A DNA stretch of 64,000 nucleotides from Dickeya zeae NCPPB 2538. GTDB lineage: Bacteria > Pseudomonadota > Gammaproteobacteria > Enterobacterales > Enterobacteriaceae. The translations under genes were made by a program, and so were the position numbers. Positions 6,536-23,032 of the stretch are shown here, one piece after another. Location: contig NZ_CM001977.1 of NCBI RefSeq assembly GCF_000406165.1, forward strand, positions 1 to 64,000, written 5' to 3'. A model generated the notes under the pieces. It worked only from the letters and a program-made list of their open reading frames with translations, ran no database searches and was not told the origin of the DNA. Numbering within the stretch: position 1 is the first letter of the stretch; every line of letters begins with the position of its first letter.

Positions 6536-7720
6536 TTATGCAGCCAGTGCCCGTCGCCTTGTGCTGTACCACTCCTGCGCCATCGCCATCACGGCGGTAA
6601 TCACCATAAAGATAACGGCTGACCAGAAAATGGCGGACGGATGGCCTTGATCTAAAAACCAGCCGAAGACCACCGGACCACCGGCACCGCCGATATTAAA
6701 GCCGGTGGTGACCACGCCGAAGACCCGGCCTTCAGCACCGGCCGGTGATGCCGCGCGAACCAGCATATCCCGCGATGGGGCGATCATGCCGGAGAGGAAG
6801 CCTGCCACACCCAGAATCAGCGTGGTCGCCAGCGACGGCAGGGTAGATACCGCAACGATGGCGACCAGCACCGCCGTGACCACCAGCGAACCGGTGGCGA
6901 CCAGCCCGTGATGCCGGGTTTTATCCGCCAGAGAGCCACCCGCCAGTACGCCGAACGCGCTGGTAAACAAAAACGCTGTCAGCGCCAGATTGGCTTCGGT
7001 CAGCGGCATGCCGTAACCGTTCACCAGTGCGGTTACCGAGAAGTTTTGAATCGAGTTAGTGCTCAGGTTGAGCAGCATAAACAGCACCAGCAGCGACAAA
7101 ATAGGCAGGGTAAATACCGCGACTTTTGGCGCAGAGGTCTTTTTGTCGTGCGCGGTGGCGGCGGGCAATGCCTCTTGCTCGCCGAGCAACATCGGTACGG
7201 TCAGCAGCCCGAGCAGGCCGGATAAGACCAGCGCGAACTCGATACGGGTGAGGGCGGCGACGGTCAGCAAAATGGCTGGCGCGACGGCCGTGCCGAGAAA
7301 ACCGGAAAAAGTATGCACCGAGAAGGCGCGGCCCATGCGGTTTTCGGCAATACCGCGTGAGAGCAGGGCGTAATCCGATGGGTGATAGACCGCGTTGGCA
7401 AGCCCAGCCAGCGCCATGGCGATGAGCATCCAGCTGTAGCTTGTAAAGAAGCCGAGCGACAGGAAACACAGACTGCCGAGCGTCAGCCCGGCTATCAGCG
7501 TGCGACGCGGGCCGATACGGTCAACCGCAAAGCCAATCGGCGTTTGCACCAGTGCGGAAACAACGTTGAATACGCCGAGCGCCACCCCAATTTCCACGTA
7601 ACTGATGCCACGCTGTGCGGAAATCAGCGGCATCAGCGCCGGTAACACCATCATGTGGAAATGACTGACCCAGTGAGCGGCGGAGACTTGTGCCAGTAGT
7701 GGTAGCTTTTTTATTGTCAT
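6536..7720 (-). CDS. MFS transporter (12-TM-type hydrophobic profile)
   Basis: The 394-aa translation is highly hydrophobic, with MFS-like loop motifs (VDRIGPRRTL). This gene is not the E. coli neighbour of gyrB. Confidence 0.8.
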   Translation of the reverse strand: MTIKKLPLLAQVSAAHWVSHFHMMVLPALMPLISAQRGISYVEIGVALGVFNVVSALVQTPIGFAVDRIGPRRTLIAGLTLGSLCFLSLGFFTSYSWMLIAMALAGLANAVYHPSDYALLSRGIAENRMGRAFSVHTFSGFLGTAVAPAILLTVAALTRIEFALVLSGLLGLLTVPMLLGEQEALPAATAHDKKTSAPKVAVFTLPILSLLVLFMLLNLSTNSIQNFSVTALVNGYGMPLTEANLALTAFLFTSAFGVLAGGSLADKTRHHGLVATGSLVVTAVLVAIVAVSTLPSLATTLILGVAGFLSGMIAPSRDMLVRAASPAGAEGRVFGVVTTGFNIGGAGGPVVFGWFLDQGHPSAIFWSAVIFMVITAVMAMAQEWYSTRRRALAA

Positions 7721-7860
7721 GATTATTTTTATCGATTGGCTGCGCGGATGCGCAAGGCGGATTCAGCAATAAGGTTAACATATCGCCAGAATAGTTAGTC
7801 GTCTATCTTTAGACCGGCAATAATAGCCGAGGGCGCCGGGCGGGGATGGAAAAGGGCAGC

Positions 7861-10848: not shown

Positions 10849-11133
10849 TCAGGCGGGGTGATCGTAACCGGCGTAAAACCAGGCTATCAGCGACGGGTTG
10901 CTGACATCGGTAAAAAACTCCGCCACGATATCGCGTATCAATCCGTAACGGCGGCACAGTTGCCCGGCTTCAAACGCGGCTTGTTGTCGGCCTCGCAGTG
11001 ACGCACGCTGGTGTGCGTAACCGCAGACGTAGCCACGGCGATAATCATCGCAATGGTGGCGGATATCGTTCATCGATTGCGGTGTACTGGCGTGTAGCCC
11101 CGCCAAAATGCCGTCGCCAAAGTGGTTTTTCAT
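10849..11133 (-). CDS. Small hypothetical protein (about 94 aa) upstream of prlC
   Basis: The ORF is MKNHFGDGILAGLHASTPQSMNDIRHHCDDYRRGYVCGYAHQRASLRG... The track's longer N-terminal extension is AT-rich and looks non-coding. No family was recognised. Confidence 0.35.
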   Translation of the reverse strand: MKNHFGDGILAGLHASTPQSMNDIRHHCDDYRRGYVCGYAHQRASLRGRQQAAFEAGQLCRRYGLIRDIVAEFFTDVSNPSLIAWFYAGYDHPA

Positions 11134-11320
11134 AAGCGTCGTATCCAGAATATACGATATATAAATTATTATATAACGAAAAGGGCGGGTTGAAAAAGGT
11201 GAGTTATTCAACTCCCCCGAGGTGGATAGCGGTGATTGTGGGGGTATTTTGTGGCGCTAACCGTTTATACTATGGCGATTAGCGGCAAACGCGCCCTCAT
11301 TGACCGGAAATCCATACGTT

Positions 11321-12202: not shown

Positions 12203-13117
12203 TTATACCTCAAAAGTGGCCAGGTCAGTGGCGACGTCTGTCGCCGCAAACAGCGTCTGGCATTCCTGACGTAACCGTTCCAGATCAGCCTGACCATAGC
12301 GGGCGCTGAAATGGGTGATGATCAACCGCTTCGCGCCCGCGTCTCGCGCCGTGGCGGCGGTTTGCAGGGTGGTGGAGTGACCGCGTTCGTTAGCGCGCTC
12401 CGCCATTGATCCTTCCACTGTGGCTTCGTGCACCATGACATCGACCCCCGCAGCCAGCTTGAGTGCTTCCGGCGTTGGGCGGGTATCGCCGAAAATCGCC
12501 AGCGATTTACCCGGCAGACTGGGGCCGAGGTAATCCCAGCCGTTCAGTACCTGCCCGTCATCAAGAGTGACCGTTTCCCCGCGTTTTAACTGCTGGAAAT
12601 AAGCACCGGGTTTGATGCCCTGTGCCGCCAGTTTTTCCACATCCAGCGCCCCCGGTTTGGGGCGTTCCTCAATGCGGTAGCCGAGGCAATACAGCGTGTG
12701 AGACAGTTCATGCGCCGTCACCCGTAACTGCGCGTCTTCGAATACCGTACCGGGACCCACTTCCACCACCTCCAGCGGATACGTCAGCCAGGAACCGCTC
12801 AGCGTCAGCGCGGTTTCGATGAAGGTTTTCAACCCAGCCGGGCCGTAGAGCGTCAGCGGTGTGTCGATACCCGCCATGGAGCGGGAACACAGCAAACCGG
12901 GCAACCCGAACAGATGGTCGCCGTGCAGATGGGTGATAAAAATTTTCTCCAGCTTGCCGGGTTTGATTGGGGTGTGCAGAATCTGGTGCTGGGTGCCTTC
13001 ACCGCAGTCAAACAGCCAGAATGCCGGGCGAATGCCGTGCAAGTCGAGCGCGATACTGGTGACGTTGCGCTCTTTGGTCGGCACGCCTGCGTTGGTGCCG
13101 AGAAAAATCAGTTTCAT
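12203..13117 (-). CDS. rbn: Ribonuclease BN / RNase Z (metallo-beta-lactamase fold)
   Basis: The 304-aa translation [26 protein letters not shown]...[18 protein letters not shown]... has the HxHxDH motif and resembles E. coli RNase BN (ElaC) along its length. It begins 10 nt after the rtcR stop. Confidence 0.88.
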
Positions 13118-13127
13118 GCAAATTCCT

Positions 13128-14717
13128 TTATATCGAGTCGGCGTTTTTCACATCATCCCAGCTCAGTCCAAAGCGGGCCAGGTACTTGCGTAGCCTGTCG
13201 GCGTCATTGGGCTGTTTTTTCTGGCGGCGTGAAATCGCAAACAGTGTACGCCCGGCTTCTGACAGGCTGTGGGCTTGCCGACAGACCTCTAACACGCGCT
13301 CAAGCTGGCATTGCTCGAAGATATCCAGCTCACCGAGGTGGGCAGGCAAGGTTGTCGTGGCAGCAGGGCCTCGCCACTGCTGTTTAAGACGTTGAATTTC
13401 TTCATCTACCAGCGTGGTATTAATGCGCCCCTGTTCGGCGAGCGTGGCCATACGATGTACGCTGGCGCCAAGCTCGCGAAAGTTGCCCCGCCAGCTGGCG
13501 TGCTCCGAACAGGCAAAGGCCAGAAAACGCTGGCGTGCTTCTTTATCAAACCGTACCTGGACTTGTTGTTGTTGGGCGAAGCGGTGTAATTCAAAGTCCA
13601 GGTTAGGTTCGATATCTTCACACCGTTGCGCCAGGCCTGGCAGCGGAAAAGTCCACATATTGATGCGGGCGTACAGATCTTCACGAAAATGCCCTTCCTC
13701 CACCCAGTGCGGCATATCCCGGTGAGTGCCGGCAATCAACTGAAAATCGCTGCTGACCTCTTTATCGGAACCAAACGGCAGGAAGCGCTTTTCTTCGATG
13801 GCTTTCAACAACATCGCCTGTTCATCCTGGCCTAACTCACCGATCTCATCGAGAAACAAAACGCCGCCATCGGCTTCCCGCAGCAGCCCCGCGCGTGATT
13901 GCTGCGCTCCGGTAAACGCGCCGCGAACATGACCAAACAACGTGGACATCGCATTATCGCCGCGCAGTGTGGCGCAATTGACGGCGACAAACTTTCCGTT
14001 GACCTGATGGCGTGATGCCTTGAGCTGATAAATACGGTTGGCCAGAAAGGATTTGCCAGCGCCGGTGGGGCCGGTTAACAAAATTGGGGCTGAAGAGCGC
14101 AGGGCGACCCGCTCAATCTGATCGATGATGCGATTAAATGTCGCGTTACGGGTGGCGATACCTGCTTTCAGAAATGAAACCGATGCTTGTTGTTCCCGCA
14201 GGAAGCGGCTGGTAATGGCGGTGTAACGGCTGAGATCGAGGTCGATAACCGTGTACTGCCCGATAGGGGAAGGCGCTTCGTCGTTATGGTCAGACGGGCC
14301 GGTTTGCAGCAGCCGGGCTGGCAGGTAGCGTGCTTCCGTTAGCAGAAACCAGCAAATCTGCACCACGTGCGTGCCGGTAGTGATGTGCACCAGATACTCT
14401 TCGTGTTCTGTATCAAAGGGATAATGGGCCGCAAAGTCGAGAAACGTGGTGTATACCTCTTCGAAGTCCCAGGGGTCGGCGAGTTCAACCTCATGCAGGC
14501 TCACGGTGGTGATGGGGGATATCTGGCCGATATCTTCCCGAACCTGTTGCGCCAGCCCGAGACTACGCGGCTGATAGAGCAATTCCAGTCGATCAATGGG
14601 TAAATCCGGTTGCTGGCAGGCGGCGATGGTCGGTCTCCATCTATTCCAGCGGTTTTGTCGTTTCCCTCGTTTATCCAGCGCCGTACCCAGCACGCCAATC
14701 ATGACTCTTCGCTTCAT
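13128..14717 (-). CDS. rtcR: Sigma54-dependent transcriptional regulator RtcR (CARF-like N-terminus, AAA+ sigma54 activator domain, C-terminal HTH)
   Basis: The 529-aa translation is collinear with E. coli RtcR, including [11 protein letters not shown] and GAFTGA-type (GAFTGAQQ) motifs. It is transcribed divergently from the rtcB-containing operon. Confidence 0.92.
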
Positions 14718-14851
14718 GCTTTATCCTTTTTTATAAATACTTATCTAAAAAAATATTACTTTATCGGTTTAATGATTAACAGAGTAAGTGATGCGTAAAT
14801 AAATTCATTGAAAATCATTAAGTTGAATTTATTTTTGTGAATAGGGAAGGA

Positions 14852-14869
14852 CTGGCACGGTTTTAGCAA
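14852..14869 (+). promoter_or_regulatory. Sigma54 (-24/-12) promoter TGGCAC-N5-TAGCA upstream of the SPFH-rtcB operon
   Basis: ctGGCACggtttTAGCAaa is seen directly at 14853-14868, with the GG and GC elements 12 nt apart as in the TGGCAC-N5-TTGCA consensus. It lies in the rtcR-divergent intergenic region, as expected for an RtcR-activated promoter. Confidence 0.6.
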
Positions 14870-14970
14870 AAATATAAGCACTACACACAGGAAGGGAAGC
14901 ATACCCGCTTACGGTTGGGGGAGCCGGTGATGTTATTCCCGGGCGTTTTATTAAAGGGATTAAAAAGAAA

Positions 14971-15864
14971 GTGTTTAAGAAAATAACAATAAGAAAAGGG
15001 CAACTGGGTTTGCTCAGCCGAAACGGCAACGTGCGGCAGGTATTGGAAACCGGTTCTCATCTCCTGTTTGGTTGGGCCCGAAGGTTGTCAGTGGCCATCG
15101 TCGAACGGGATGGCTCTGTGCTTGACGCGACGCTTGCCGAACATCTACGTCAGTTTCATCCGGAATGGGTAGCGCGTTACTGCCTGTCAGCGGATATGGC
15201 GGATGATGAGATTGGCTTGCGTTATGACCGTGGGCAACTGCGGGAAATTTTGCTACCAGGTACCCGGCGTTTGTACTGGCGGCGAGATGAACAGCAGGTG
15301 ATTGAGCGCGTTTCTGCCCATCAGGCTCAGGTACCAGCGCGATTGCTGCCGATATTACTGCAACCAGAGTTACGTGAGCAGGCGGTCACTGGCAGTAACG
15401 GCGTGCTGGTCGCCGCTATTCCGACATGGCATGTCGGGATTTTGCATATCAACGGGCAACCCTCGGCACTACTGCCACCCGGTAATCATGGTTACTGGCG
15501 CTTTAATCGAAGCGTGAGTGTGGATGTGGTGGACACACGGTTACAGGCGCTGGATGTTGAGGATATCGAAGTACTGACCGCCGATCGGATCAGCGTGCGT
15601 CTGACGCTACTGGCGAACTGGCGCTACAGCGATGTGCTGGCTGCATTTGCACGTCTGGCGAAACCCAAAGCGCATCTGTGTCGGGCTTTACAGGTTGTGC
15701 TGCGCGATGTGGTGGGAATGCATCGGTTTGCTGAATTGCTGACCAGCAAACACACCGTTGGAGAACAGGTCAGTGAACAACTCGAGCAGCAATTGATGTG
15801 CTACGGGATAGACCTGGTCTCGCTGGCCGTGATGGACACCGAAGGCTATAACGCCGCCTGGTAA
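14971..15864 (+). CDS. SPFH/band-7 domain protein with no N-terminal TM segment and a novel N-terminal domain of about 150 aa; first gene of the rtcB operon
   Basis: The C-terminal half (DIEVLTADRISVRLTLLANWRYSDV ... ALQVVLRDVVGMHRFAELLTSKHTVGEQVSEQLEQQLMCYGIDLVSLAVMD) fits the SPFH pattern. The N-terminus has no 20-residue hydrophobic stretch. The GTG start is uncertain. Confidence 0.7.
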   Translation: MFKKITIRKGQLGLLSRNGNVRQVLETGSHLLFGWARRLSVAIVERDGSVLDATLAEHLRQFHPEWVARYCLSADMADDEIGLRYDRGQLREILLPGTRRLYWRRDEQQVIERVSAHQAQVPARLLPILLQPELREQAVTGSNGVLVAAIPTWHVGILHINGQPSALLPPGNHGYWRFNRSVSVDVVDTRLQALDVEDIEVLTADRISVRLTLLANWRYSDVLAAFARLAKPKAHLCRALQVVLRDVVGMHRFAELLTSKHTVGEQVSEQLEQQLMCYGIDLVSLAVMDTEGYNAAW

Positions 15865-15933
15865 CCAGGGTGGCGTCAACGGTGAGTGAAAGATAACGCA
15901 TGGGATTAAATAATAAATCAAAGGACGTTTTAC

Positions 15934-17160
15934 ATGAGGCATAACGATTATCAGGTACTGGATATGCCGCAAGGCGTGCCGGTAAAAATGTGGACGTACG
16001 GTGTTCCGGTCGAGCCTGAAGCCCGCGAACAGTTACGGAATACGGCGAAGATGCCGTTTATTTTCAGCCATCTGGCGGTGATGCCGGATGTCCATCTTGG
16101 CAAAGGGTCTACGATCGGCAGTGTGATTCCAACCCGTGGGGCCATTATTCCGGCCGCCGTCGGCGTAGATATCGGCTGCGGCATGATGGCGGTGCGAACC
16201 TCGCTGATTGCCGCTGATTTACCGGACACGCTGTTGGGTATTCGCAACGCCATTGAGCAGGCTGTTCCTCATGGACGTAGCGTGAATCGTGGGGGGCGGG
16301 ATAAAGGCGCATGGCATGAGCCACCACCACGTGTGGATGCCCATTGGCGGCAACTGGATGCCGGATTCAAACGTATTACCGAACACTATCCGTCGTTGCT
16401 GAAAACCAACAATTACCACCACTTGGGCACGCTCGGAACCGGTAACCACTTTATCGAATTGTGTCTCGATGAGATGGATCGGGTGTGGGTGATGCTGCAC
16501 AGCGGTTCCCGAGGTGTTGGCAATGCTATCGGCAATCTGTTCATCACGCTGGCGCAGCAAGATATGCGACAGCATATTGCGAATTTGCCGGACTGTAATT
16601 TGGCGTATTTCGCCGAAGGTAGCCGTCATTTCGATGACTACCAGTATGCGGTTGGCTGGGCACAGGGTTATGCGCGCCATAACCGCGAGGTGATGATGGA
16701 ACAGGTGCTGCAGGCATTGGCACAGGCGATCCCCAGGCCGTTTACCGCCCGGCAGGAAGCGGTGGATTGCCACCACAACTATGTACAACAGGAAACGCAT
16801 TTTGGCGAGCCGGTGCTGGTCACGCGTAAGGGCGCAGTATCGGCCCATCGCGGGCAGATGGGGATTATTCCCGGCTCGATGGGAGCGAAGAGTTTCATTG
16901 TGCGTGGTTTGGGTAATCAGGAGAGCTTTTGTTCCTGTAGCCATGGTGCCGGGCGCACCATGAGTCGAACGGCGGCAAAAAAGCAGTTTACGGTTGACGA
17001 CCACGTGCGGGCGACGGCCCACGTCGAATGCCGTAAAGACCATGACGTGATTGATGAAATTCCCATGGCGTACAAAGACATTGATGCCGTGATGGCGGCG
17101 CAAGCATCGCTGGTCGAGATTGTTCACACGCTGCGGCAGGTGGTGTGTGTAAAAGGATAA
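15934..17160 (+). CDS. rtcB: RNA-splicing ligase RtcB (3'-phosphate/5'-hydroxyl RNA ligase)
   Basis: The 408-aa translation is collinear with E. coli RtcB (MPFIFSHLAVMPDVHLGKGSTIGSV ... HGAGR ... VCVKG). Confidence 0.95.
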   Translation: MRHNDYQVLDMPQGVPVKMWTYGVPVEPEAREQLRNTAKMPFIFSHLAVMPDVHLGKGSTIGSVIPTRGAIIPAAVGVDIGCGMMAVRTSLIAADLPDTLLGIRNAIEQAVPHGRSVNRGGRDKGAWHEPPPRVDAHWRQLDAGFKRITEHYPSLLKTNNYHHLGTLGTGNHFIELCLDEMDRVWVMLHSGSRGVGNAIGNLFITLAQQDMRQHIANLPDCNLAYFAEGSRHFDDYQYAVGWAQGYARHNREVMMEQVLQALAQAIPRPFTARQEAVDCHHNYVQQETHFGEPVLVTRKGAVSAHRGQMGIIPGSMGAKSFIVRGLGNQESFCSCSHGAGRTMSRTAAKKQFTVDDHVRATAHVECRKDHDVIDEIPMAYKDIDAVMAAQASLVEIVHTLRQVVCVKG

Positions 17161-17181
17161 TAAGCATAACGAGGGAAAAAT

Positions 17182-17967
17182 ATGGAACATGAATCTGACG
17201 TGAGTGCTGTCATGCGCGAGCGTGTCCGTGGTGTGCTGGCGGATGTAGAACGCCGGTTTGGCGTGCGTGTGCTCTATGCCTGTGAGTCAGGCAGTCGGGG
17301 ATGGGGATTTGCTTCGCCGGATAGCGATTATGATGTGCGTTTTATCTATGTCCATCCCCCAGAATGGTATTTACGGGTTGAGCAAGCCCGGGATGTGATT
17401 GAATTACCGATAGATGATGAGCTGGATGTCAGCGGGTGGGAGTTGCGTAAGGCATTGGGCTTACTGAAGCGGGCCAACCCGACGCTGATGGAATGGCTGG
17501 ATTCGCCGGTGGTGTACCATCAGGATGAGAACACCATGAAACAGATGCGCGCGCTGGCACCGGATCATTTTTCGCCGGGTCGTGCCTGTTACCACTATCT
17601 ATCCATGGCGCGAAAGAACTTCCGCGGCTATTTGCAGGGGGAATCGGTTCGGCTGAAGAAGTACTTTTATGTCCTCAGACCGATACTGGCGGCGTTATGG
17701 ATAGAAGCGGGTAAAGGCGCTCCGCCGATGCGCTTTGAGACATTACTGGCTGGAACGGTGACCGATCAGGCTTTACTGGCGGAAATCGCGCATCTGCTGC
17801 GCATCAAACGTCAGTGCGGTGAGGCGCAATACGGTGCCCGATTGCCCGCTGTCCATGCATTTATCGAACATCAGTTGGGGCGTGAGCGGCCTGTGCTGGA
17901 TGCGACGCTGGCGGGCATGGACCAGACGCTGAACCAGTTGTTGTTTAATACGGTGATGGAAGGGTGA
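17182..17967 (+). CDS. Pol-beta-superfamily nucleotidyltransferase (RtcB-associated type)
   Basis: The 261-aa translation carries the GSRGWGFASPDSDYDVRF motif, a GS-x9-DxD nucleotidyltransferase signature. It starts 21 nt after the rtcB stop in the same operon. Confidence 0.75.
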   Translation: MEHESDVSAVMRERVRGVLADVERRFGVRVLYACESGSRGWGFASPDSDYDVRFIYVHPPEWYLRVEQARDVIELPIDDELDVSGWELRKALGLLKRANPTLMEWLDSPVVYHQDENTMKQMRALAPDHFSPGRACYHYLSMARKNFRGYLQGESVRLKKYFYVLRPILAALWIEAGKGAPPMRFETLLAGTVTDQALLAEIAHLLRIKRQCGEAQYGARLPAVHAFIEHQLGRERPVLDATLAGMDQTLNQLLFNTVMEG

Positions 17968-17974
17968 TTGAGGT

Positions 17975-18002
17975 GTAAAACCGGTGAAAGCCGGTTTTAC
18001 CT
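17975..18002 (+). terminator. Hairpin AAAACCGG-tgaaag-CCGGTTTT at the end of the rtcB operon
   Basis: A perfect 8-bp stem whose 3' arm ends in TTTT, seen directly. The trailing T-run is weak. Confidence 0.45.
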
Positions 18003-18246
18003 ATTGCACCGATTTCCAAAACCGTTGCGAACCGTTGTGCATTTCTTCATACAATCCCGCTTTCTGTCTTTGCCGGATACCGATTGCTGGCGTTACACTT
18101 TCCTCTGGTGTTACTTCTTTTGCTGGCGTGACCTTGTTGGCGTCAGCATGACATTGCGAGTGGTATCGCGCCCTGGGTGCCAGAACCGATGTGGCGGCGG
18201 GATACGGTCTATTTACTTTTATCGAAAGCAAGCGTGTGGAGCCCTG

Positions 18247-19599
18247 ATGACCAGACATTATGACTATCTCGCCATTGGTGGCGGCAGCGGCGGTATTGCC
18301 TCCATCAACCGTGCGGCTATGTACGGCAAGAAATGTGCGCTGATTGAAGCCAAACATCTGGGCGGCACCTGCGTCAACGTCGGGTGCGTGCCGAAGAAAG
18401 TCATGTGGCATGCGGCGCAGATTGCCGAAGCCATTCACCACTACGGGCCGGACTATGGCTTTGATGTCACCGTCAATCGGTTCAACTGGGATACGTTGCT
18501 GAAAAATCGCAGTGCCTACATCGACCGTATCCACCAGTCCTACAACAATGTGTTGGGGAAAAATCAGGTCGAGGTGATTCAGGGGTTTGCCCGTTTTGTA
18601 GATGCGAAAACGGTGGAAGTGAACGGCGAGCGTATCACCGCTGATCATATTCTGATCGCCACCGGCGGTCGCCCGACGCGCCCGAACATTCCCGGGACGG
18701 AATACGGCATTGATTCCGATGGTTTCTTTGAGTTAAACGCACTGCCGCAGCGGGTGGCGGTAGTGGGAGCTGGGTACATCGCGGTGGAGATCGCGGGCGT
18801 GCTGAACGCGCTCGGCTCTGACGTGCACTTGTTTGTGCGCAAACACGCGCCGCTGCGCCAGTTCGACCCGCTGATAGTGGAAACACTGGTCGAAGTGATG
18901 AACACCGAAGGCCCGGCGCTGCACACGGAGTCCATCCCCAAAGCGGTGGTGAAAAATGCCGACGGTAGCCTGACGCTGCAACTGGAAAGCGGGTACGAGC
19001 AAACCGTGGATTGCCTGATTTGGGCGATCGGCCGCGAACCGGCGAACGATAAGGTAAACCTGGAAGCGGCAGGTGTCACACTCAACAGCAAAGGCTACAT
19101 CGTGGTGGATAAATTCCAGAACACCAACGTGCCGGGCATTTACGCGGTGGGCGACAATACTGGCGCTGTTGAGCTGACGCCAGTGGCGGTGGCGGCAGGG
19201 CGTCGTTTGTCTGAGCGCTTGTTTAACAACAAGCCGGACGAGCATCTGGATTACAGCAATATCCCGACCGTGGTATTCAGCCACCCGCCTATCGGCACCG
19301 TCGGGTTGACCGAGCCGCAGGCACGCGAGCAGTACGGCGACGAACAGGTGAAAGTCTACAAATCGGCTTTTACCGCCATGTACACTGCGGTGACGCAGCA
19401 TCGCCAGCCATGCCGGATGAAACTGGTGTGCGTGGGGCCGGAAGAGAAAATCGTCGGCGTGCACGGCATCGGCTTCGGGATGGATGAAATCCTGCAAGGC
19501 TTCGCGGTGGCGGTGAAGATGGGCGCGACCAAAAAAGACTTCGACAACACCGTGGCGATTCACCCAACGGCGGCGGAAGAGTTTGTGACCATGCGTTAA
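18247..19599 (+). CDS. gor: Glutathione-disulfide reductase
   Basis: The translation from the ATG at 18247, [51 protein letters not shown]..., shows the FAD and redox-active CVNVGC motifs over 450 aa. The track ORF carries a spurious 93-codon N-terminal extension. Confidence 0.93.
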
Positions 19600-19627
19600 T
19601 GCCGAAACCCATCTACTGTAGAAAACC

Positions 19628-19665
19628 GAAAGGCCAGGGCATCGTTCTCTGGCCTTTATTTATTG
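19628..19665 (+). terminator. Rho-independent terminator of gor (AGGCCAG ... CTGGCCT followed by TTTATTTATT)
   Basis: Seen directly about 30 nt after the gor stop. Confidence 0.6.
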
Positions 19666-19884
19666 ACTCATCGATACATTGCCTTTTCTAAAACGTTTAT
19701 GCCCTTTTCCGAGTTACAGGTGTGACTGAGAACAAAAGTAGCAACCAATATGTTGACCAAAATTTAGTAATGATACACAGTGTCCATTATTACCGAATCA
19801 GATCGATGCATAACAAAGCGCTACAGTCGGATAGATTTTCCGCTGCGCTTCAAATTTGCCGCAGTGAGTGGCGTTAGGTGAATA

Positions 19885-20442
19885 ATGATTACTTCTGAAA
19901 TTTTTCTAGAGTGGCTTAGGTATGCGATTGGGCGAGTTGGTCCTGGCTATTTTGGGTTCGTTGAGCGAGTTTATTGTTATGAACTCTATCATTTTTTAAG
20001 AGTTGCAATGTATGTGCATGAACGTATACACGGCCCCATTCAGAATGTGTATCTTCATTCTGAATTTGTAAAAGTTGTAATTACCGATGAAGAGGCAAAA
20101 AAACATGGAGTTTTCCCATTAGAAAATCGCCGCTCTCCCGACTTCATACTTCATGATCCGAATACGACTGATCATCAAATTGCTGCGATGGAAGTTAAAG
20201 CTACTCCTGATCTGAGTTACGCTGAATTTGTGTCTGATATTAATAAATTGTCGGAATTAAGAAGCAATTATAGATACAGCTTGGTTATCTTTCATTGCAT
20301 CAATTCTGACCTAGGCCGGATACAACAGCACGTAACTAGAGCTCAACATGAAGGCATAGTCTTAGACCCTGAGGTTTTGATTATCGTCAAACCTGAAAGC
20401 CATTTTCCAATTCAAGAAATATATCTTGATGCATTATTGTAA
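19885..20442 (+). CDS. Hypothetical protein with a PD-(D/E)xK nuclease-like motif arrangement (185 aa), in an AT-rich islet
   Basis: CYELYHF ... RSPDFILHD, then 11 aa, then AAMEVK matches E ... hhhD ... hEhK of the restriction-endonuclease fold. It is read by eye; no family match was computed. Confidence 0.55.
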   Translation: MITSEIFLEWLRYAIGRVGPGYFGFVERVYCYELYHFLRVAMYVHERIHGPIQNVYLHSEFVKVVITDEEAKKHGVFPLENRRSPDFILHDPNTTDHQIAAMEVKATPDLSYAEFVSDINKLSELRSNYRYSLVIFHCINSDLGRIQQHVTRAQHEGIVLDPEVLIIVKPESHFPIQEIYLDALL

Positions 20443-20507
20443 TTCAGGGCGGTTGCTAACAAACCTCTCAAGGCACTTGCGTTGCTCGCTGGGGTGCTAC
20501 ATTTCTT

Positions 20508-21254
20508 ATGAGATTATTTATGGAACAAAGAAGAAAACTGATCCCAGTAATTTCTGAAGCTATATCTAAAACATTCGATATAGGTGATTGGAAATCTATT
20601 GGGTATGCAACTAAAAATGAATATTTTATTCAAAATCATCCTCGGCTCTTAAGGAGCTTGCAGTGGGGGGATGAGGATTATGAAGGCTGTGTTTTCGATG
20701 TTGTAGAGCACATCTATGATTCGGGTGATAAAAATATTGAGAAGTTACTAGGGAACTCAAAAGTCGAAAGATGGATCAAGTCCAATAAACCGGATATCTA
20801 TAAGGAATACTTCGACAACACTTACGTACCTAGCTTTAAACAAAGAAATCTATCCCCTAGTGAAATTGTTGATAAGGCACTGGAAGATGCTCAAGCTCTT
20901 ATAATTAATAATGGTCCTGTAAGTGCAATTGATCGGGTGCATACGGCGCTGCATGGGTATTTGAAACATCAGCTTGATCAAAAAAACATAGATTATCGGG
21001 CAGATGCAGGTATTACGGAACTATATAAATGCATTCGGGAAAATGTTCGAGAAATTAGAGAGCTTGGTGAGCGGTCAGAAGACATGAATAAAATGTTGCG
21101 TTCACTAACTTCTATTTTAGATGCGTTGAATCCGATTAGAAATAGAGCAAGTGTTGCTCACGCAAACGATACTCTTATAGGTGAAGCTGAAGCAAAGTTC
21201 GTAATTAATATAGTAAGTAGTGTGCTTCACTATTTGGACGAGAAGTTAAAATAG
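20508..21254 (+). CDS. HEPN-domain protein of the AbiJ/Abi_C type (Rx4-6H motif), 244-248 aa
   Basis: The C-terminus LNPIRNRASVAHANDTLIGEAEAKFVINIVSSVLHYL contains the canonical HEPN Rx4-6H motif in a helical context. The alternative ATG at 20520 gives MEQRRKL... The gene lies 66 nt downstream of the previous ORF on the same strand. Confidence 0.65.
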   Translation: MRLFMEQRRKLIPVISEAISKTFDIGDWKSIGYATKNEYFIQNHPRLLRSLQWGDEDYEGCVFDVVEHIYDSGDKNIEKLLGNSKVERWIKSNKPDIYKEYFDNTYVPSFKQRNLSPSEIVDKALEDAQALIINNGPVSAIDRVHTALHGYLKHQLDQKNIDYRADAGITELYKCIRENVREIRELGERSEDMNKMLRSLTSILDALNPIRNRASVAHANDTLIGEAEAKFVINIVSSVLHYLDEKLK

Positions 21255-21434
21255 TTGAATATAACAAGCGCAGACACAATTTTAAATTGTCAAGGAGTTC
21301 ATTGATGTCACAAGAAAAAAATAAAAGAATTGGTGAAAAAAGCGAATTGTAAAACTTCGTGAAAACAACGACTAGACGCTTTAAATGAAATCAAAACATA
21401 TGACTGTCAAGAAAGAAATGATGTTGTTATTAGA

Positions 21435-21743
21435 TTGGCATTCCACGATAAGGTTTTTAAAATTAAAGAAGAAGCATTTAGAGTTGCTCAGTCTTTAGGG
21501 TTAACAAAAAATGGCAAACCAATATCTCTAGGGAAAAAAGATATCGGCTATAAACCAAGTTATTTCACAAAGAAATTTAAAAGAATAAAACACGAACTTG
21601 GAACGGATGATTTTCAACTTGAAAAATTCAAAAATAAATTTTTGTTAATTGATCCAGAAATGTTTGATGTCATGCAGTACGAAAAAGGCATAAAATTCGA
21701 TATGTGGATTCAAAACACCTATCAAGGATTACCTAAAAAATAG
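21435..21743 (+). pseudogene. Probable decayed ORF remnant (the track's 102-aa TTG-start ORF plus an upstream ATG fragment in another frame, separated by an in-frame TGA)
   Basis: An ATG at about 21305 opens MSQEKNKRIGEKSEL and then stops. The downstream frame ...KQRLDALNEIKTYDCQERNDVVIRLAFHDKVFKIK... has no ATG start and is preceded by a TGA. Poly-A runs (A7, A6) sit at the junction. Confidence 0.3.
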
Positions 21744-21824
21744 GCGTGTGCTAACAAAAACTTGAAACTGGGTGGCATGAAATACCGGAATTCTGTTTCT
21801 GAATGGAGCATGATTTTGGGTCAG

Positions 21825-21889
21825 GGTCACCGAAGCCGTGATGTACCCACATCACGGTGACCACAGGGTGAGGACATTATTCCTCACCC
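21825..21889. repeat. Two adjacent stable hairpins: an imperfect one (GGTCACC..CCGTGATGT / ACATCACGG..TGACC) and a perfect 9-bp one (GGGTGAGGA-cattat-TCCTCACCC)
   Basis: Seen directly at 21825-21862 and 21866-21889 at the distal edge of the AT-rich islet. A REP-like element or small RNA is possible. Confidence 0.5.
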
Positions 21890-21943
21890 TGATTCAGTCA
21901 AGTCAGTAATACCCCAGCATTTCCCCATCCAACAGGCTTAGCG

Positions 21944-21976
21944 ATCGGCATTCGCCGATGCCGGTTCTGTTTTATT
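21944..21976 (+). terminator. Hairpin CGGCAT-tcgccg-ATGCCG followed by GTTCTGTTTTATT, a plus-strand terminator-like structure
   Basis: Seen directly. It lies just downstream of the minus-strand esterase stop at 21998, so it may act bidirectionally. Confidence 0.4.
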
Positions 21977-21997
21977 CCTCAATAAGACGCGCCGGTG

Positions 21998-23032
21998 TTA
22001 CAGATTCGCGTTGGCACTGGCTTTAGTGCTGCTGGCGGCGGATTTTGTGGGTTCGCCCAGCGTCTGTTTAAACCAGTTGACGACGCGTTCAATAATCGGT
22101 TTTTGGAACCAGGTGATATCGCCATGGTTGGCTCCTTCGACCAGCACATAGTCGACGCGGTTACCCTCAGCTTTCAGCGCCTTGAATAACTGGGCACTTT
22201 GCAGCGGTGATACCAGGGTGTCCTTGCTGCCATGCATAATCAGGAAGGGCGGTTTTTTGCCTTTGATATGCCCCATTGGGCTGGCGTTCAGCGCTTTTTT
22301 CGGATCGCTGCTGATAGTTGCGCCCGGCCAGTCACGGAAGGCGGTGCCGTTAACTAATAGCGCTTCGGTGACGGCAGGCGATTGATGAACTTTCTGGACA
22401 TTTTCTGGGAAACCTTCGCCGATATTCAGCAGATTGGAGAGACCGTACAAGGTGACGACCGCCTGAACGTCGGAAGATTGATTCAGGAACTGTCCCTGTT
22501 CAAACTGTTTGTCACCATTGGTCGTACCCAGCATCTGGGCCAGATATCCGCCAGCTGAATCGCCCAGCACGCCGATGCGGTTCGGATCAATACCATACTC
22601 GGCCGCATGTTCCCTCAGAAAACGCACGGCGGATTTGCCATCCTGCACGGGGGCTGGAAAGGTGTCGGGCACGACGCGGTACTCCGCCGCGGCGACGACA
22701 AAACCGGCTTCTGCCAGCGCCATACGCATTTCGGAGAATTTTTCATAGTCGGCTGACGTAAAGCCCCCACCGGGGAAATACACAATCGCTGGTTTACGAT
22801 CCTGTGTGCGAGGAATTAATAACGACATCTGTAGTTGCCGTATCGCACGCGTGCTTTTTACCTGAGAATAAATAATACCGCTCATGGCATCAATTTGTTC
22901 GCTGGTCTTCTTTACCTGAATAACCAGAGCACCGTCGGTGTAACCAGGTAAATCGGGGGTTGCAGCATAGATTGTCGTAGTGGTCATCCCCATTATGATT
23001 GCGCCTGCCAGTACGATTTTTTTGAATAACAT
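21998..23032 (-). CDS. Secreted alpha/beta-hydrolase (carboxylesterase/lipase-type, GDSAGG nucleophile motif)
   Basis: The 344-aa translation has an N-terminal signal-peptide-like segment (MLFKKIVLAGAIIMGMTTTTIYA), an oxyanion-hole YFPGGGF and GVLGDSAGGYLA around the catalytic serine. Confidence 0.85.
   Translation of the reverse strand: MLFKKIVLAGAIIMGMTTTTIYAATPDLPGYTDGALVIQVKKTSEQIDAMSGIIYSQVKSTRAIRQLQMSLLIPRTQDRKPAIVYFPGGGFTSADYEKFSEMRMALAEAGFVVAAAEYRVVPDTFPAPVQDGKSAVRFLREHAAEYGIDPNRIGVLGDSAGGYLAQMLGTTNGDKQFEQGQFLNQSSDVQAVVTLYGLSNLLNIGEGFPENVQKVHQSPAVTEALLVNGTAFRDWPGATISSDPKKALNASPMGHIKGKKPPFLIMHGSKDTLVSPLQSAQLFKALKAEGNRVDYVLVEGANHGDITWFQKPIIERVVNWFKQTLGEPTKSAASSTKASANANL

Follow-up and report, generated by a model that had tools for sequence, protein, structure and literature searches.

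A probable RtcR/sigma54-controlled Band-7-RtcB-RlaP RNA-repair module, reduced in form, between rlmJ and gor of Dickeya zeae

The DNA described here comprises the first 64,000 nucleotides (64 kb, in the following the window) of contig NZ_CM001977.1 of Dickeya zeae NCPPB 2538, and the analysis was centered on a group of RNA-processing genes that it contains between rlmJ and gor. At this site an RNase BN/Z gene, the regulatory gene rtcR and a repair operon form a block of roughly 6 kb. The operon diverges from rtcR and encodes a soluble protein of the SPFH (Band-7) superfamily, the RNA ligase RtcB and the nucleotidyltransferase RlaP (Table 1). Altogether, this is very probably a chromosomal Band-7(SPFH)-RtcB-RlaP RNA-repair module controlled by RtcR and sigma54, which in Dickeya was reduced by deletion of the leader RNAs and of the C-terminal helices of the SPFH protein. 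What is new here is the Dickeya-specific reduction, i.e. a short leader without the RNAs together with the C-terminal loss; in all other respects the locus conforms to a system that has been described. All searches for missing genes and RNAs covered the window alone.

The original prediction had named RNase Z/BN, RtcR, an SPFH protein, RtcB, a nucleotidyltransferase and gor, and profile matches confirmed each of these genes at the coordinates of Table 1. RtcR shares 62.5% identity with E. coli RtcR, is built of an N-terminal sensor domain, an AAA+ domain and a lid domain, and shows a ratio of nonsynonymous to synonymous substitution rates (dN/dS, omega) of 0.04 among Dickeya species. In the case of RtcB, the identity to the E. 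coli protein is 69%. Because rlmJ directly adjoins gor in E. coli K-12, the segment from RNase Z to rlaP can be read as an insertion and rlmJ and gor as bystanders, thus as ordinary flanking genes. The rlmJ ... gor insertion site is common to the Dickeya window, Erwinia, Lonsdalea and Brenneria, and the site order rlmJ, RNase Z, rtcR, operon, gor was found in Erwinia persicina, Lonsdalea and Brenneria. Regarding the far end of the operon, the hairpin directly after the rlaP stop probably marks its end; a simple terminator scan, which was itself not above chance, did not call this hairpin, as it has no T run. As a separate observation, the synonymous divergence (dS) from D. fangzhongdai (L066) was 1.2-1.4 for rtcR, band-7, rtcB and rlaP and 0.43-0.45, i.e. 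about three times lower, for the flanking rlmJ and gor. The raised dS of the block 13128-17967 may come from exchange by recombination or from weaker codon bias.

Table 1. Features of the rlmJ-gor region in window coordinates, with strand and the support for each.
Feature	Position	Strand	Support
RNase Z / RNase BN gene	12203-13117	-	NF000800 526.8 bits vs cut-off 398
rtcR, sigma54-dependent activator	13128-14717	-	PF06956 277 bits, PF00158 171 bits, NF038308 842 bits
A/T-rich divergent control region, rtcR to promoter	14718-14852	.	sequence
sigma54 -24/-12 element TGGCACGGTTTTAGCA	14853-14868	+	motif conserved in related loci
short 5' leader, about 100 nucleotides	14869-14970	+	structured RNAs of relatives not detected
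soluble Band-7/SPFH protein, 297 amino acids	14971-15864	+	PF01145 at amino acids 150-289, 78 bits
rtcB, 3'-phosphate/5'-OH RNA ligase	15934-17160	+	PF01139 424 bits
rlaP, Pol-beta nucleotidyltransferase	17182-17967	+	PF10127 329.7 bits vs cut-off 23
strong hairpin GTAAAACCGG...CCGGTTTTAC directly after rlaP stop	17972-18001	+	sequence and fold
gor	18247-19599	+	true start 18247, residue 94 of the long open reading frame

A sigma54 -24/-12 element had been proposed about 100 nucleotides upstream of the operon, and it proved to be real by comparison with other loci. Taken by itself, the motif is no more frequent in the window than expected by chance, with 38 matches at two mismatches or fewer vs 45 expected. 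Of 66 homologous loci, 60 carry the motif TGGCAC-N5-T.GC[AT] at the same place ahead of their Band-7 gene. Additionally, TGGCACGGTTTTAGCA, whose 3' end is 103 nucleotides before the GTG start of the SPFH gene, closely resembles CTGGCACGACGGTTGCAAT, which takes the corresponding position ahead of E. coli rtcB. The E. coli rtcBA operon is said to have been described as sigma54-regulated by Genschik in 1998. On the side of rtcR, the control region contains blocks conserved among three Dickeya species and is presumed to be the region of activator binding and DNA bending. As judged from its sequence, the operon is classed as an RNA-repair operon of the RtcR/sigma54 type, a stress-inducible kind that enteric bacteria often carry.

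The architecture of this locus had been regarded as unusual, an assessment that did not survive a wider comparison. By scanning one genome per species with the Dickeya Band-7 protein as query, 63 loci with an SPFH relative were obtained, and their neighbours were mapped by tblastn with the window proteins. All but one of these loci (62/63) also encode RtcR, RtcB and/or RlaP, and about 35 hold Band-7, RtcB and RlaP together. An rtcR gene divergent from Band-7 - RtcB - RlaP was found in Erwinia, Enterobacillus, Phytobacter, Kosakonia, Citrobacter, Pluralibacter, Franconibacter, Siccibacter, Providencia, Xenorhabdus and others; Lonsdalea, Brenneria, Klebsiella, Hafnia and some Citrobacter carry Band-7 - RlaP without RtcB. 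The association of Band-7 proteins with RtcB and the name RlaP are already credited to Burroughs and Aravind (Nucleic Acids Research, 2016) in later papers (10.1101/312249, PMC12776372, PMC13404743). As reported by a citing paper, the 2016 study described RtcB genes that neighbour those of a Band-7 protein and of a predicted tRNA-like RNA, the b7a-tRNA. A 2026 preprint describes such Band-7 proteins as bacterial homologues of the major vault protein (MVP) that share operons with non-coding RNAs (ncRNAs) and RtcB, and the rtc locus of P. aeruginosa includes an SPFH protein of its own, PaFlo8.

In the case of the SPFH protein, which shares 96% identity with a D. zeae protein, membership of the SPFH/Band-7 superfamily was found both by profile and by fold. 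The predicted lack of a transmembrane helix held as well: next to the PF01145 match, the maximum Kyte-Doolittle mean over 19 residues is 1.21, and there is no hydrophobic segment that would correspond to the membrane anchor typical of SPFH proteins. The N-terminal domain of about 150 amino acids, previously called unrecognised, is recognisable over about 142 amino acids as internal repeats. Profile-profile comparison on sub-blocks of the SPFH family alignment related residues 1-72 to 73-142 (probability 83%, E 9e-6) and residues 73-142 to 143-192, the beta-rich section with which the SPFH domain opens (probability 89%, E 2e-6). The N-terminal domain is therefore made of two extra copies of this beta-rich start, and the protein has a layout of repeats 1-72 and 73-142 followed by the SPFH core 143-297. 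Such a build may be called vault-like, with some resemblance to the major vault protein, and as in vault proteins the number of repeats varies. Xenorhabdus Band-7 proteins, for instance, measure 517-524 amino acids and have further N-terminal repeat copies (L051 5001-6554; also L052-L055 and L059).

At the C-terminus, the Dickeya protein is shorter than its relatives. Homologues outside Dickeya measure 375-378 amino acids vs 297-305 in three Dickeya species, and the truncation is common to all three: the proteins stop directly after the SPFH core, where they share a conserved new tail, T(E/A)GYNAAW, and end before the C-terminal coiled-coil helices typical of SPFH proteins. They are without the last ~85 residues of the family (PGDMKTIL...EAEKSAQANVIRRREE...), for which a low-confidence model of a full-length homologue predicts helices; this AlphaFold 2 (AF2) model of P0015 was poor, with a pLDDT of 50.5, and was left out of the fold search. 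In solved SPFH and vault assemblies, the C-terminal helices build the walls of the cage. In the full-length homologues, the C-terminal 90 amino acids are the most constrained part, with an omega of 0.009-0.05 and 93-99% identity. A frameshifted pseudogene was ruled out, as tblastn with these missing 90 amino acids found no remnant in the window, downstream of the gene or elsewhere.

The leader is reduced as well. From promoter to start codon the distance is 121-124 nucleotides in Dickeya vs 311-431 in other Enterobacterales loci. In the relatives, two conserved RNAs supported by covariation, referred to here as elements A and B, are located downstream of the sigma54 promoter and ahead of the Band-7 gene (L015 4707-5000, L001 4655-5000 and the corresponding stretches in about 55 further loci). 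Element A is a structure of several stems that terminates in a tRNA-like acceptor/T-arm helix, GGGTTCGAnTCCC. Compensatory changes were seen in 23 of its 30 pairs, 96% of the cells were paired vs 37-51% in slid-partner controls, and none of 500 shuffles was as good. Element B, a long bulged stem in which GCCGG..GCAGGCAAAA pairs with TTCCCCTGCGGCTTCGCC, shows compensatory changes in 17/20 pairs. Neither element matched any Rfam 15 family. Element A may be the published b7a-tRNA or a YrlA-like RNA, and for element B we found no published description. In distant loci, tRNA-like genes that ARAGORN can call occupy the same place.

In the Dickeya window, no cognate tRNA-like ncRNA adjoining the Band-7 gene was found by ARAGORN, Rfam, the covariance model R1 of element A, or nhmmer. 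R1 was run over the whole window with default filters and with filters off and gave no match in the leader; its best match in the window lay at an unrelated site and reached 9.8 bits (E 0.4). The nhmmer profiles of elements A and B returned nothing in the leader even at E <= 100, and between 12000 and 20000 neither ARAGORN nor Rfam (E-value mode) reported a tRNA-like or known RNA. By eye, the leader seemed to have some likeness to the 5' part of element A, which nhmmer did not support. The predicted fold of the leader is no more stable than that of shuffled sequences (z-score 0.09). As an observation in its own right, the short leader is largely invariant in three Dickeya species, though the adjacent genes have a dS above 1.

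Regarding RlaP, the third gene of the operon belongs, as had been proposed, to a genuine family of RNA nucleotidyltransferases (PF10127, 330 bits), for which activity was described in a 2025 preprint (PMC12776372). The predicted Pol-beta motif is present, with a spacing other than the GS-x9-DxD given for it: the translation reads G37-S38-x10-D49-x-D51, with D47 as an additional signature residue. Three conserved aspartates are reported for the family in the same preprint (PMC12776372), according to which the RlaPs of P. fluorescens and P. aeruginosa extend RNA 3'-OH ends by one or two nucleoside monophosphates (NMPs), show a preference for damaged RNAs, and are required to restore aminoacylation of over-damaged tRNA. 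Among solved structures, no close match to RlaP was found. In D. chrysanthemi, no rlaP is present between rtcB and gor (L065 7209-7598), a loss that suggests further erosion of accessory genes within the genus.

The Dickeya locus can be set against several known systems. It is most directly comparable to the Band-7/b7a-tRNA/RtcB/RlaP systems, sharing a soluble Band-7 protein beside RtcB and RlaP, RtcR/sigma54 control, and beta repeats followed by SPFH that may be likened to MVP; it differs from them by having no structured leader RNA and by a Band-7 protein without its last ~85 residues. The E. coli rtcR/rtcBA locus has the same divergent rtcR and a near-identical sigma54 promoter sequence, but it includes RtcA, has neither Band-7 nor RlaP, and sits by malT and glpR. 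In P. aeruginosa and P. fluorescens, the rtc locus likewise combines RtcR-controlled RtcB and RlaP with an embedded SPFH protein, PaFlo8, which is likened to the Dickeya protein by its position in the locus; here, RtcA is retained. The rsr-yrlBA-rtcBA operon of Salmonella is likewise controlled by RtcR and encodes RtcB, and at its beginning stand a gene for a putative RNA-binding scaffold and tRNA-like ncRNAs. In contrast to Dickeya, which has no ncRNA, this scaffold is Ro60/TROVE, found together with Y RNAs, and RtcA is present. Compared to the eukaryotic vault of MVP and vault RNA, the Dickeya protein has only two extra repeats and no cap helix, and it gives low TM-scores of 0.33-0.37.

From these comparisons, a course of events can be proposed for the module. 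According to PMC10159003, RtcR senses tRNA fragments ending in 2',3'-cyclic phosphate. RNA damage would produce tRNA fragments with such ends, the N-terminal sensor domain of RtcR would bind them, and its AAA+ domain would then open the sigma54 promoter at 14853-14868. A single transcript, ending near the hairpin at about 18000, would carry the SPFH, RtcB and RlaP genes. RtcB would join 3'-phosphate or cyclic-phosphate ends to 5'-OH ends and RlaP would refill RNA 3'-OH ends that have lost one or two nucleotides, with the SPFH protein as a possible scaffold or cofactor. The idea of a soluble SPFH scaffold, also raised in the original prediction, is a hypothesis that has already been published. 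Because the helices that form the cage walls are lost and the remaining core is still under selection, the truncated Dickeya protein is probably active in the form of a small oligomer or a direct partner rather than a cage with RNA.

Other explanations were weighed against this reading, and they concern different parts of it. Regarding the cyclase, RtcA is absent as had been predicted, since tblastn with the E. coli protein gave no match in the window at E <= 10. Among the related loci, tblastn found RtcA only in those of Azoarcus and Kangiella, and its absence is therefore the rule for the enteric module. Given that the window and nearly all enteric loci of the Band-7 type lack RtcA, and that rlaP follows rtcB in the position of E. 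coli rtcA, one could see here, as the original prediction did, a different route of RNA end healing and sealing, with the nucleotidyltransferase taking over the function of the RtcA cyclase. This is very unlikely. RlaP and RtcA occur together in Pseudomonas, where the operon order is rtcB-rlaP-rtcA (PMC12776372), and Kangiella L062 holds RtcB, RtcA, Band-7 and RlaP at one locus, so that RlaP is to be seen as an addition to the cyclase and not as its replacement. The addition of NMPs to a 3'-OH is also another chemistry than cyclisation, the product end is according to the authors not directly usable by RtcB, and RlaP also accompanies 5'-phosphate ligases (PMC12776372). A further possibility is that the accessory part is decaying, the truncated SPFH gene being a remnant without function whose frame has remained open by chance, while only RtcB matters. 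It would agree with the loss in Dickeya of both ncRNAs and of the most conserved part of the SPFH protein, with the additional loss of rlaP in D. chrysanthemi, and with an omega raised two- to threefold over full-length homologues and neighbouring genes. In the three Dickeya species the Band-7 omega is 0.11-0.17 vs 0.03-0.08 for the neighbouring genes and about twice that of the same regions in full-length homologues, yet it is far below 1; the frame is intact in all three, which are separated by a dS of 0.65-1.6, and the new tail is conserved. The truncated SPFH gene is thus not a dead remnant, it is under purifying selection, and an explanation by decay appears unlikely.

It was also considered whether the neighbourhood is coincidental, RNase Z, rlmJ and gor being functionally unconnected with the rtc genes. 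In the case of rlmJ and gor the coincidence holds, as both are adjacent in E. coli without rtc genes. RNase Z, which is 60% identical to E. coli RNase BN along its entire length and gives a full-length match to the equivalog model NF000800, is probably an ordinary RNase BN orthologue, and in Klebsiella, Citrobacter and Kosakonia the module occurs without RNase Z within about 3 kb beyond rtcR. Against this stands the tight junction: the RNase Z gene starts 10 nucleotides after the rtcR stop, is probably co-transcribed with rtcR, and the junction is kept in three enterobacterial families with differing flanks (Providencia, Xenorhabdus). The adjacency recurs in Lonsdalea, Brenneria, Erwinia, Providencia and Xenorhabdus, thus in Pectobacteriaceae, Erwiniaceae and Morganellaceae, where RNase BN/Z follows rtcR at about 10-90 nucleotides (L001-L010, L049-L055, L059). 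In Kangiella L062, RNase Z is located within the operon (6885-7817). The leader RNA of the relatives ends in a tRNA-like acceptor/T-arm helix, the classical shape of an RNase Z substrate. Because the adjacency persists across families and contexts, because Kangiella has the gene inside the operon and because element A has the shape of a substrate, a functional link of RNase Z to the module is plausible, either in processing the tRNA-like leader RNA or in repair itself. Pure coincidence of the neighbourhood still has a considerable chance, though somewhat less than an even one.

Some points weigh against the interpretation of the locus as a reduced, RtcR/sigma54-controlled Band-7-RtcB-RlaP module. 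Every mechanistic step proposed for Dickeya rests on homology, the conserved short leader might have a function of its own, and, the searches spanning 64 kb, rtcA or an unlinked copy of the ncRNA may sit elsewhere in the genome.

Around the block, additional features were detected. Between prlC and rlmJ lies the gene of a small DUF2623 protein (10849-11211, minus strand; PF11115, 159 bits), which D. fangzhongdai has as well. Directly after gor, a low-GC island extends over 19700-22000 of the window, with a GC content of 0.35-0.42 vs 0.55-0.60 around it. This island contains an AbiJ-like gene at 20508-21254 (plus strand), whose product combines AbiJ_NTD5 with an Abi_C/HEPN region (PADLOC AbiJ, E 2e-10) and is likely an abortive-infection RNase; it lies about 2.5 kb from the RNA-repair operon, a closeness that is probably coincidental. 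The open reading frames beside it, 19885-20442 and 21435-21743, matched no family. In the same type of search, the SPFH protein, RlaP and RNase Z matched no defence system of PADLOC.

For the SPFH protein of Dickeya, we tentatively propose a more specific role, which we hold possible rather than probable: a naturally minimised vault-like cofactor that is without its partner RNAs and cage helices and is still selected. If this were true, the repeats and the SPFH core would work in RtcB/RlaP repair without cage or RNA, for example by binding the ligase or damaged RNA, and Dickeya would represent a natural separation-of-function variant. Dickeya, with RtcB, RlaP and only the SPFH core, lends itself to comparison with its close relatives Erwinia and Lonsdalea, which have the complete set at the same site, and such a comparison could show what the helices and the RNAs contribute.

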